NCBI GenBank assembly: GCA_963752385.1
Contig: CAVVYL010000010.1
Location: 41,285-105,284, forward strand
Direction: 5' to 3'
From: an uncultured Acidimicrobiia bacterium
Lineage (GTDB): Bacteria; Acidobacteriota; Terriglobia; Versatilivoradales; Versatilivoraceae
Length of the DNA stretch: 64,000 bases
Every line of letters begins with the position of its first letter. The stretch's first letter is position 1. Below, piece after piece: positions 31,579 through 32,766 of the stretch. A program made the translations under genes and the position numbers. The notes under the pieces are model-generated. The model was not told where the DNA came from. It made no database searches and worked only from the letters and a program-made list of their open reading frames with translations.

Positions 31579-32766
31579 TTAGGCCAAAATCTCGGTCACA
31601 GTTCCAGCGCCCACGGTTCGGCCCCCTTCCCGGATCGCAAACCGCAACCCCTTCTCCATCGCAATCGGCGCAATCAGCTCGATCTCCAACGACACGTTGT
31701 CGCCCGGCATCACCATCTCGGTCCCCTCCGGTAGCTTCGCCACCCCCGTCACGTCGGTCGTCCGAAAATAAAACTGCGGCCGATACCCATTGAAAAACGG
31801 CGTGTGCCGCCCCCCCTCTTCCTTCGTCAAGATGTAAGTCTCTGCCTTGAACTTCGTGTGCGGCGTAATCGAACCCACCTTCGCGATCACTTGCCCCCGC
31901 TCCACCGCCTCCTTGTCGATCCCCCGCAGCAGTAACCCCACATTGTCTCCCGCTACCCCTTCGTCCAGCAGCTTCTTGAACATCTCGACACCCGTCACCA
32001 CACTCTTCTGCGTCGGCCGGATCCCCACTATCTCCACCTCTTCCCCCACCTTCACCTTCCCACGATCCACCCGCCCCGTCACCACCGTCCCCCGTCCCGA
32101 TATCGAAAAAATGTCCTCGATCGGCATCAAAAACGGCTTGTCCACCTCCCGCTGCGGCAACGGCACGTACTTGTCCACCGACTCCATCAACTCTTCCAAC
32201 TTCTTCTCCCACTCCGCCTCCCCATTGATCGCCCCCAGCGCACTCACCCGCACTACCGGTACCTCGTCCCCAGGAAACTGGTACTTGCTCAGCAGCTCCC
32301 GAACTTCCAGCTCCACTAAATCCAATAGCTCCGCATCGTCCACCGCATCCACCTTGTTCAACGCCACCACAATGTAGGGCACCCCCACCTGCCGCGCTAA
32401 CAAGATGTGCTCCCGCGTCTGCGGCATCGGCCCGTCCGTCGCCGCCACCACCAATATCGCCCCGTCCATCTGCGCCGCCCCCGTAATCATGTTCTTGATG
32501 TAGTCAGCGTGCCCCGGACAGTCCACGTGCGCATAGTGCCGCTTCGGCGTCTCATACTCCACATGCGCCGTCGCGATCGTGATCCCCCGCTCCCGCTCCT
32601 CCGGCGCGTTGTCAATCGAATCGAAACTCCGAAATTGTACCTTCGGGTTCTTCTTCCCCAATACCTTCGTGATCGCAGCCGTCAGCGTCGTCTTGCCGTG
32701 ATCAATGTGCCCAATGGTCCCAATGTTCACGTGTGGCTTGCTGCGATCAAATTTCTCCTTCGCCAT
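31579..32766 (-). CDS. tuf: elongation factor Tu
   Basis: 395-aa ORF with [17 protein letters not shown] and NKVD motifs. Full-length EF-Tu. Its nucleotide composition is highly atypical (see finding). Confidence 0.98.

Follow-up and report, generated by a model that had tools for sequence, protein, structure and literature searches.

The tuf locus

We analysed a stretch of 64,000 nucleotides (the window) from an uncultured soil bacterium of the Acidobacteriota (contig CAVVYL010000010.1 of assembly GCA_963752385.1, positions 41,285 to 105,284). Here we describe its tuf gene, which encodes elongation factor Tu (EF-Tu) and whose codons, wherever a synonymous G is available at the third position, end in G far more often than those of any other gene in the window. 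The same or nearly the same tuf sequence was present in five independent metagenome assemblies and is therefore not an assembly artefact. The features referred to below are the following.

31579–32766, minus strand: tuf (EF-Tu, 395 amino acids), assigned from its open reading frame (ORF) and translation; the tRNA-linked 'tufB-type' copy, which as a whole forms an island rich in G at third codon positions (G3)
31582–31626, minus strand: last 15 codons of tuf, G-ending at 5 of 14 G-permitting sites
31594–32778, minus strand: gene-conversion tract, 0–1 nt differences from the tuf copy of the str operon (contigs L084/L085), from about 12 nt before the ATG through codon 391
31520–32212, minus strand: ORF of 230 amino acids in an alternative sense frame (frame offset 2, codons beginning on the tuf third position); 25% Gly and rich in G/D/A/R/V, without a Pfam match
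32879–33519, minus strand: tRNA genes Thr(UGU)-Tyr(GUA)-Gly(UCC)-Thr(GGU) upstream of tuf, found with ARAGORN and Rfam; the conserved tufB-operon arrangement
31273–31422, minus strand: rpmG (L33), directly downstream of tuf, with normal codon usage; 3′ limit of the island

The Pfam domains GTP_EFTU (PF00009), D2 (PF03144) and D3 (PF03143) were matched on the identical protein from a source-like contig (L081). The genes are arranged, all on the minus strand, in the order tRNA-Thr(UGU), tRNA-Tyr(GUA), tRNA-Gly(UCC), tRNA-Thr(GGU), tuf, rpmG, tRNA-Trp, secE, nusG, rplK-A-J-L and rpoB-C; domain content, gene order and tRNAs all agree with a tuf gene in a tufB-type operon. In total the window holds six tRNA genes. 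The stop codon of tuf is TAA, and a scan for promoters and terminators around the gene yielded nothing above chance.

G at synonymous sites of tuf

The GC skew of the plus strand falls to as low as −0.50 within tuf and is about 0 to −0.15 outside. In the coding sense, G and C occupy 0.63 and 0.17 of the third positions of tuf, whereas G3 ranges from 0.17 to 0.39 in all other window ORFs of at least 100 amino acids. At 4-fold degenerate sites tuf carries 81.8% G and 6.6% C, compared to 30.6% G and 35.7% C in the rest of the window. The mean 4-fold G content per gene is 30.5% (standard deviation 3.8%, 43 window genes), which places tuf at z = 13.7. Total G + C at third positions (GC3) is raised to 0.80 from about 0.63 in the window, and T at third positions (T3) is low (0.12). 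The fusA fragment, rpsJ, rplC′, rpmG, rplKAJL and rpoBC are all close to baseline at 4-fold sites; those of rpmG comprise 9 C, 4 G, 2 A and 1 T.

This bias had been noticed in an initial annotation made from the letters alone, and its counts were all reproduced: 28 of 37 Gly codons are GGG, 20 of 27 Thr codons ACG, 25 of 30 Ala codons GCG, 36 of 43 Val codons GTG, 18 of 21 Pro codons CCG and 19 of 22 Arg codons CGG. The plus-strand base counts (36 C and 6 G at 32041–32100, 14 C and 18 G at 29041–29100) and the recurrence of normally rare codons (ATA 3, TTA 3, CTA 2, GTA 5 and TTT 9 times) were likewise recovered, and the contrast with the neighbouring genes of the window, ribosomal protein genes included, is real. 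The annotation had placed the island at 31620–32700; the bias is there, but these bounds are too narrow, as the whole coding sequence at 31579–32766 is affected.

The different classes of synonymous sites behave differently. A/G-ending 2-fold sites carry 87% G in tuf and about 62% in the rest of the window, whereas the C fraction at C/T-ending 2-fold codons is 0.58 in tuf and 0.59 elsewhere. This split shows that the rule is 'G wherever G is synonymous', and that the pattern is neither an avoidance of C nor a product of C-to-T deamination. What the annotation called 'C-depletion' is thus not a depletion of C as such. All eight 4-fold boxes as well as Glu, Lys, Gln and Leu-UUR use G in tuf, at about 82–87% of the G-permitting positions. 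AGG and AGA, in contrast, account for none of the 22 Arg codons of tuf but for 16% in the window. Among Leu codons TTG/TTA reach 57% compared to 23% elsewhere, and CTC is not used (24% elsewhere). The 4-fold codons of tuf that do not end in G comprise 13 with A, 13 with C and 10 with T; in view of the window fractions of 0.14, 0.36 and 0.19, A is relatively enriched among them.

The ends of the gene

According to the initial annotation the bias relaxes at both ends of tuf. At the 5′ end this effect is weak: the first 20 codons carry G at 7 of 11 G-permitting sites compared to 228 of 263 in the interior (P = 0.055), and the tuf gene of a sister species (L086, see below) has 11 G at 11 such sites and no relaxation. 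At the 3′ end the relaxation is real (5 of 14 versus 228 of 263, Fisher P = 3e-5), but it does not mark a breakpoint, being common to nearly all relatives. Codons 381–391, moreover, lie inside the block shared with the second tuf copy and yet are not rich in G. Judged from these comparisons, the ends of tuf appear to be generic features of tuf genes and not recombination breakpoints.

The length of G runs and the potential to form G-quadruplexes (G4) were tested as causes of the 3′ drop and do not account for the departure. The context of G runs or of the next codon was also tried as an explanation of the non-G sites in general and dropped; the effect is weak (P = 0.055), and G runs do not exceed a length of 7 in the real gene, which is also the maximum of an all-G recoding. 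The C-terminal stretch (31582–31650 in the window, with the same stretch in the loci L001–L086) is a conserved local exception at synonymous sites: nearly every phylum examined writes it with GAA, GGC, CGC, ACC, GTC and GCC codons, however the remainder of its tuf is biased.

A second tuf copy and gene conversion

The str-operon copy of tuf, which the annotation had proposed to locate and to compare at the nucleotide level, was found on two contigs (L084 and L085) with the arrangement fusA′-tuf-rpsJ-rplC′. Both belong to the same population; the two copies compared come from different metagenome samples of this population and not from one closed genome. They are identical from about position −12 to codon 391, including the ribosome-binding site GAGAGCG. 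The str-operon copy differs from the window copy at 5 positions, all within codons 392–395, and the flanks are unrelated. A near-identical second copy in another context with abrupt edges is the pattern of tufA/tufB concerted evolution, which has been documented in Acidobacteria and five other phyla (PMC6053082). The identical block is a classic gene-conversion tract over essentially the whole coding sequence.

The proposal that the interior of tuf was converted from a paralog is therefore correct in one respect, as the gene does convert with a second copy. Conversion does not bound the bias, however, because the tract includes the 'relaxed' ends as well, and conversion alone cannot yield an asymmetry of G over C.

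Two independent contigs (L083:1–1626 and L086:1–2082) join fusA-tuf, the upstream side of the str operon, to tufB-type downstream sequence, which consists of the 59 nt downstream of the window tuf in L083 and of rpmG in L086. These junctions result either from chimeric assembly across the 1.2-kb tuf repeat or from a natural inversion by recombination between tufA and tufB. A homology extending 59 nt beyond the stop codon, as suggested by L083, was ruled out by the better contigs L084 and L085. Short-read rpsJ contigs of near relatives (L087–L091) begin 50–95 nt before rpsJ, at the last tuf codons, which is consistent with a two-copy tuf repeat that breaks assemblies throughout the group. The EF-G fragment that adjoins a tuf copy is 89% identical to a fragment from 'Candidatus Acidoferrum sp.'.

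Maintenance of the bias in a sister species

We compared the window tuf with that of a sister species (L086, Ca. Acidoferrum sp.). The genes differ at 170 of 1188 nucleotides and 40 of 395 amino acids, yet 4-fold G is still 83% in L086. At shared 4-fold sites 134 of 181 positions are identical (74%), compared to an expectation of about 0.70 if both sequences were independent and had 83% G, and in the fusA fragments of the two lineages only 16 of 50 4-fold sites are identical (32%), which corresponds to full saturation. The bias has thus been kept despite saturated synonymous sites and is a maintained equilibrium.

The A-ending codons of tuf (GTA, TTA, CTA, ATA) are not conserved: most are replaced by a G-ending synonym in L086, and the A-ending codon 104 is polymorphic within the species. 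These 'rare' codons seem to be transient products of G-to-A change in a gene otherwise saturated with G. We also compared 12 genes between two strains with 99.06% identity (L081 and L082), and tuf diverges least among them (1.7 versus 2.9–27 differences per kb). In the same comparison gltX (window 34442–35941; L081:6828–8327) carries 41 strain differences or 27 per kb, with 2–10 per kb in the other 11 genes; this excess probably results from recombination import.

The tuf bias in relatives and other phyla

The initial annotation named two findings that would make the anomaly lineage-typical and not special, namely the same preference in other highly expressed genes of the genome or in tuf orthologs of close relatives. 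The orthologs of close relatives do show the bias, which is therefore lineage-typical for tuf; the other highly expressed genes of the genome do not share the preference for G.

In nearly all Acidobacteriota relatives 4-fold G is 0.45–0.72 in tuf and 0.30–0.40 in the flanking genes, and a similar contrast occurs in Vicinamibacterales (0.74–0.77), in a metagenome-assembled genome (MAG) of the Gemmatimonadaceae (0.78, with 29 of 40 Gly codons GGG), in Beta-, Gamma- and Alphaproteobacteria (0.59–0.75) and in a verrucomicrobial MAG. Actinobacterial tuf prefers C, and the G excess is absent in most low-GC lineages such as Bacteroidota. Some relatives show a graded series, with 0.25–0.35 in other genes, 0.38–0.56 in fusA and the S10-operon genes and 0.54–0.69 in tuf. 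No flanking gene with G-ending usage of the kind seen in the window tuf was found in 80 loci.

In most lineages the preference is specific to codon families: Ala, Pro, Ser, Thr, Val and Leu-CUN are at 0.5–1.0 G, Gly at 0–0.35 and Arg at 0–0.45. In E. coli the U34 tRNAs (U at anticodon position 34) of the six families Ala, Pro, Ser, Thr, Val and Leu carry uridine 5-oxyacetic acid (cmo5U) and read G well, whereas those of Gly and Arg do not. A preference for GGG and CGG was found only in the clade of the window and partly in L025, L019 and L015; in this clade all 12 G-permitting codon families are at about 0.75–1.0 G. The anticodons of the operon tRNAs were considered as a correlate of GGG use and rejected, since the upstream set Thr-Tyr-Gly-Thr is invariant in 18 related loci, whatever their GGG usage.

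In two Acidobacteriota MAGs (L015:10001–21182 and L006:10001–21182) the 4-fold sites of rplKAJL, nusG and rpoB are strongly biased to C (in rpoB, for instance, 0.16 G and 0.71 C). The adjacent tuf genes prefer G, with G/C fractions of 0.72/0.20 and 0.48/0.40, respectively, so that a single cluster combines two classes of highly expressed genes whose synonymous preferences are opposed.

Proposed codon-level selection on tuf

We favour a gene-specific selection at the codon level for NNG codons in the most translated mRNA of the cell, homogenised between the copies by gene conversion, and give this interpretation an even chance of being correct. The synonymous sites of tuf are held at an actively maintained equilibrium with G at about 82–87% of the G-permitting positions, and conversion across the whole coding sequence keeps both copies identical in their G-ending state. 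We infer tRNA decoding to be the selective agent: NNG codons pair with C34 tRNAs or, through wobble, with U34 tRNAs, and not with the G34 tRNAs that read NNC/NNU. The absence of AGG and AGA and the family-by-family behaviour of the relatives point to an agent acting on codons or tRNAs, while the preference of Leu for TTG/TTA instead of CTN and the similar G fractions of all families in the clade leave room for an RNA-level component. Further support comes from the size of the bias and its confinement to tuf, from the C/T-ending 2-fold codons that are unchanged, from the low divergence of tuf between strains, from the graded series in some relatives, from the published finding that G-ending codons are enriched where both U34 and C34 tRNAs exist (PMC7374057) and from the fitness cost of synonymous tuf changes in Salmonella (PMC4786093). 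Strongly non-random and maintained by selection, the bias of the window tuf represents the extreme of a tuf-specific trend in most Acidobacteriota and several other Gram-negative phyla, in which Ala, Pro, Ser, Thr, Val and Leu-CUN have moved to G in most lineages and Gly (GGG) and Arg (CGG) have followed in the Acidoferrum-like clade.

Several observations weigh against such selection. In order to compare genes we used S, the log-odds shift of 4-fold G from its level in the other genes; for the str and S10 operons of the lineage the data are 2.2-kb contigs and near relatives. S is 2.32 ± 0.36 for tuf (4-fold G of 0.818 versus 0.306) and 0.14 for rpoBC, but 11 ribosomal protein genes of the same lineage are without any G shift (0.00 ± 0.16), and the S10/spc operons of near relatives are likewise unbiased. 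EF-Tu is, by our own estimate, about 5–10 times as abundant per gene copy as a ribosomal protein, and proportional selection therefore predicts S of about 0.2–0.5 for the ribosomal protein genes; no classical enrichment in proportion to expression was found in other highly expressed genes. Moreover, the ribosomal protein and rpoB genes of L015, L006, L046, L047 and L075 lean to C while tuf leans to G, and such opposed directions cannot be reconciled with one 'best codon' for the whole genome. Translational selection usually shows itself in a preference for C over U at Phe, Tyr, Asn and Ile. This preference is absent in tuf, although it is present in most relatives: C accounts for 0.58–0.60 of the C/T-ending 2- and 3-fold codons in tuf and for 0.56–0.59 elsewhere, and tuf has more TTT (9) than TTC (4) codons. 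Finally, the tRNAs upstream of tuf are alike in lineages with and without GGG usage.

The direction of the bias also contradicts published generalisations on codon optimality. As a general rule C is preferred at C/T-ending 2- and 3-fold codons and U at 4-fold codons (PMC7374057). G-ending Gly, Val, Ala and Thr codons as well as CGR (CGA/CGG) codons are described as never optimal, and GGG is thought to be prone to frameshifting (PMC5066170).

We also considered a more speculative extension, which seems doubtful. Several Gram-negative phyla may write tuf in a private 'codon dialect', based on C34/U34 (NNG) decoding apart from the G34 (NNC/NNU) set of the ribosomal proteins or on a transcript-specific RNA property. 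In either case the cell would uncouple its two largest translational loads, for example during slow growth or starvation, and the dialect would be complete, including GGG and CGG, in the Acidoferrum-like clade.

Possible selection on the RNA or DNA strand

The main rival to codon-level selection, which we regard as a possible though less probable explanation, is selection for a G-rich and C-poor sense strand of tuf at the RNA or DNA level. Third positions would be driven to G or C, for example by removing A/U-rich RNase targets or by strengthening the RNA:DNA hybrid, and G alone would avoid additional G-C helices and a C-rich, G-poor RNA on which Rho could load; the antisense RNA would be C-rich and prone to Rho termination. 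Such selection would be gene-specific by nature. It fits the convergence of the 12 G-permitting families of the clade on similar G fractions irrespective of family, the shift of Leu codons from CTC to TTG/TTA and the relative enrichment of A among non-G 4-fold codons. However, AGG and AGA, which are all-purine and free of C, are never used, C/T-ending 2-fold codons keep their share of C, conservation of the A-ending codons is lacking, and the relatives follow codon families and not nucleotides. The transcribed flanks of tuf are also essentially unskewed (+0.12 in the 5′ spacer and +0.15 in the 3′ spacer).

We furthermore compared folding energies. The minimum free energy of the full-length tuf mRNA is −421 kcal/mol, compared to −420 ± 11 for recodings with window usage, −415 ± 7.5 for synonymous shuffles and −474 ± 10 for GC3-matched recodings balanced in G and C. 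The greater stability of the balanced recodings speaks for the RNA-level explanation, but the mRNA is no less structured than a version with average usage; G-only coding thus permits a high GC3 without added structure, yet the mRNA is not unusually open. Selection for a less structured mRNA was accordingly rejected, as only the GC3-matched balanced recodings differ from the real gene. In Salmonella, how much fitness a synonymous tuf allele cost was not correlated with its effect on the folding energy of the mRNA (PMC4786093). The earlier suggestion of selection for a C-poor, G-tract-rich strand therefore survives as far as selection is concerned but not in its proposed forms, given the absence of G4 motifs (see below), the C kept at C/T-ending 2-fold sites, the unused AGG/AGA and the unskewed flanks.

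An avoidance of A/U runs, suggested by 8 tuf genes as a tuf-specific RNA signal, failed its control, being generic to 90% of the window genes. In 90% of the 42 window genes examined, runs of 4 or more A/T fall about 20% below their number in synonymous-codon shuffles (mean z = −1.4), a scarcity that reflects a generic influence of context on how codons are placed in the genome. Avoidance of ACA as a MazF-type target was rejected as well, since ACA is enriched in tuf (19 versus 13.4).

Conversion bias and mutation as possible causes

Biased repair of heteroduplexes between the tuf copies, or transcription-associated mutation, could in principle push third positions of the sense strand to G even if codons were not selected at all. 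We consider this unlikely. It is true that tuf is the sole gene of the region with a converting paralog, that the biased and converted blocks nearly coincide and that GC3 is raised. Converting tuf duplicates have also been reported in Acidobacteria, Proteobacteria and Deinococcus-Thermus, among others (PMC6053082), and the first two of these show a G bias here. GC-biased gene conversion is symmetric for G and C, however, and does not agree with a 4-fold C that drops from 36% to 7% (0.36 to 0.07) while GC3 rises to 0.80. The converting tuf duplicates of E. coli and Salmonella are not known to carry a G bias, and codons 381–391 of the window tuf are converted yet not G-rich.

A mutational asymmetry associated with transcription is not supported. 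The untouched C/T-ending 2-fold sites exclude C-to-T deamination and C/T transition biases, T3 is low and not high, and the spacers are only weakly skewed. The genes fusA′, rpmG and rpsJ, which adjoin the tuf copies in the str and tufB operons, are unbiased. We therefore exclude mutation as the main cause; the avoidance of AGG/AGA and the family-specific pattern in relatives are features at the level of codons.

Rejected readings: foreign alleles, overlapping frames and G-quadruplexes

Two points speak for a foreign or mosaic interior of tuf, obtained through horizontal transfer or recombination with another species from a donor of like codon usage: the composition of the gene is grossly atypical for the genome, and interspecies recombination of tuf is known from some groups. 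This origin, put forward in the initial annotation, is very improbable and in our view excluded by the comparisons made here, which did not include a formal tree or GARD/RDP analysis. The closest EF-Tu proteins among species-representative genomes all belong to Acidobacteriota/Terriglobia (82–86% amino acid identity), while other phyla reach at most 78%. Furthermore, the sister species keeps 83% G at saturated synonymous divergence, the relatives form a gradient, the supposed breakpoints are generic to tuf in all lineages, and no flanking gene in the 80 loci carries such usage.

Hardly credible, finally, is a bias imposed by a second coding frame over tuf or by selection for G-quadruplexes: although long ORFs exist in three other frames, two of them antisense and one sense, and the gene holds 41 runs of at least 3 G, the products are of low complexity and without Pfam matches, and canonical G4 motifs (four tracts of at least 3 G, loops of 1–7 nt) number zero in tuf, in 2000 synonymous shuffles and in the all-G recoding, so that both proposals of the annotation are excluded. 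The alternative sense frame begins on the third position of tuf, where a G cannot begin a stop codon, and is thus open by construction. Its open stretch shrinks from 308 codons to 140 in L086, and comparable open frames occur in relatives with weak bias; the ORF at 31520–32212 is a by-product and not a gene.

Comparison with known systems

Codon bias and the concerted evolution of tuf are both known; what is unusual here is a G-directed preference confined to tuf and set apart from the ribosomal protein genes. A search of the literature, within the library used, found no prior description of a G3-dominated tuf. One of the closest parallels is translational selection, for which tuf is a classic test gene. 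In Salmonella, where EF-Tu makes up about 9% of the protein mass, synonymous changes in tuf cost 0.2–4.2 × 10−4 in each generation for every codon (PMC4786093). As in the window, the strongest bias is found in the gene of the most abundant protein, AGG/AGA are avoided, the stop codon is TAA and the bias persists across species divergence, as selection expects. The direction differs, with C/U as the general rule (PMC7374057) and G without a C-over-U preference in the window tuf. Differences also lie in the unbiased ribosomal protein genes of this genome and in the opposite bias of these genes in some relatives.

The concerted evolution of tufA and tufB (Lathe & Bork 2001; PMC6053082; PMC5485169) involves the same two contexts, fusA-tuf-rpsJ and tRNA(Thr-Tyr-Gly-Thr)-tuf-rpmG-secE-nusG, as the copies described here, which are near-identical within the lineage and whose homology stops sharply at the ribosome-binding site and codon 391. 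Conversion accounts for the presence of the bias in both copies but leaves the bias as such unexplained. We know of no description of a G-over-C effect of tuf conversion. The tuf gene of Thermus thermophilus, a two-copy lineage, is said to have about 61% G at third positions (attributed to Kushiro et al. 1987). Thermus is a thermophile with a genome-wide GC3 of about 90%, compared to about 0.63 in the window.

With purine loading (Szybalski's rule) the window tuf shares a purine-rich sense strand (63% purines) and a G-over-C skew co-oriented with transcription. Its third-position skew is far greater, however (+0.58 versus −0.17 to +0.20 in the neighbours); it is confined to one coding sequence, absent in the untranslated flanks and specific for G, with A depleted too.

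Codon-usage theory assumes one preferred codon set per genome and a bias that scales with expression, whereas tuf is about 82% G-ending here while the ribosomal protein genes are at baseline. Should this hold on complete genomes, gene-specific synonymous selection would be strong even in slow-growing soil bacteria that are scored as lacking translational selection. Reference sets of the codon adaptation index, Sharp's S and growth-rate predictors based on codon bias would then be distorted by the inclusion of tuf in these phyla. A single gene with two converting copies would also offer a clean natural system for asking what besides tRNA abundance selects synonymous codons.

Further observations

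Shine–Dalgarno-like tetramers are depleted in tuf relative to synonymous shuffles (36 versus 45.5, P = 0.006), as is usual, and GATC is mildly enriched given the codon usage (13 versus 8.8). Elsewhere in the window, an ORF of 108 amino acids on the minus strand (12779–13105) has a T3 of 0.46 and a GC3 of 0.39, unlike the rest of the window, and is probably not a real gene or else lies in non-coding sequence.

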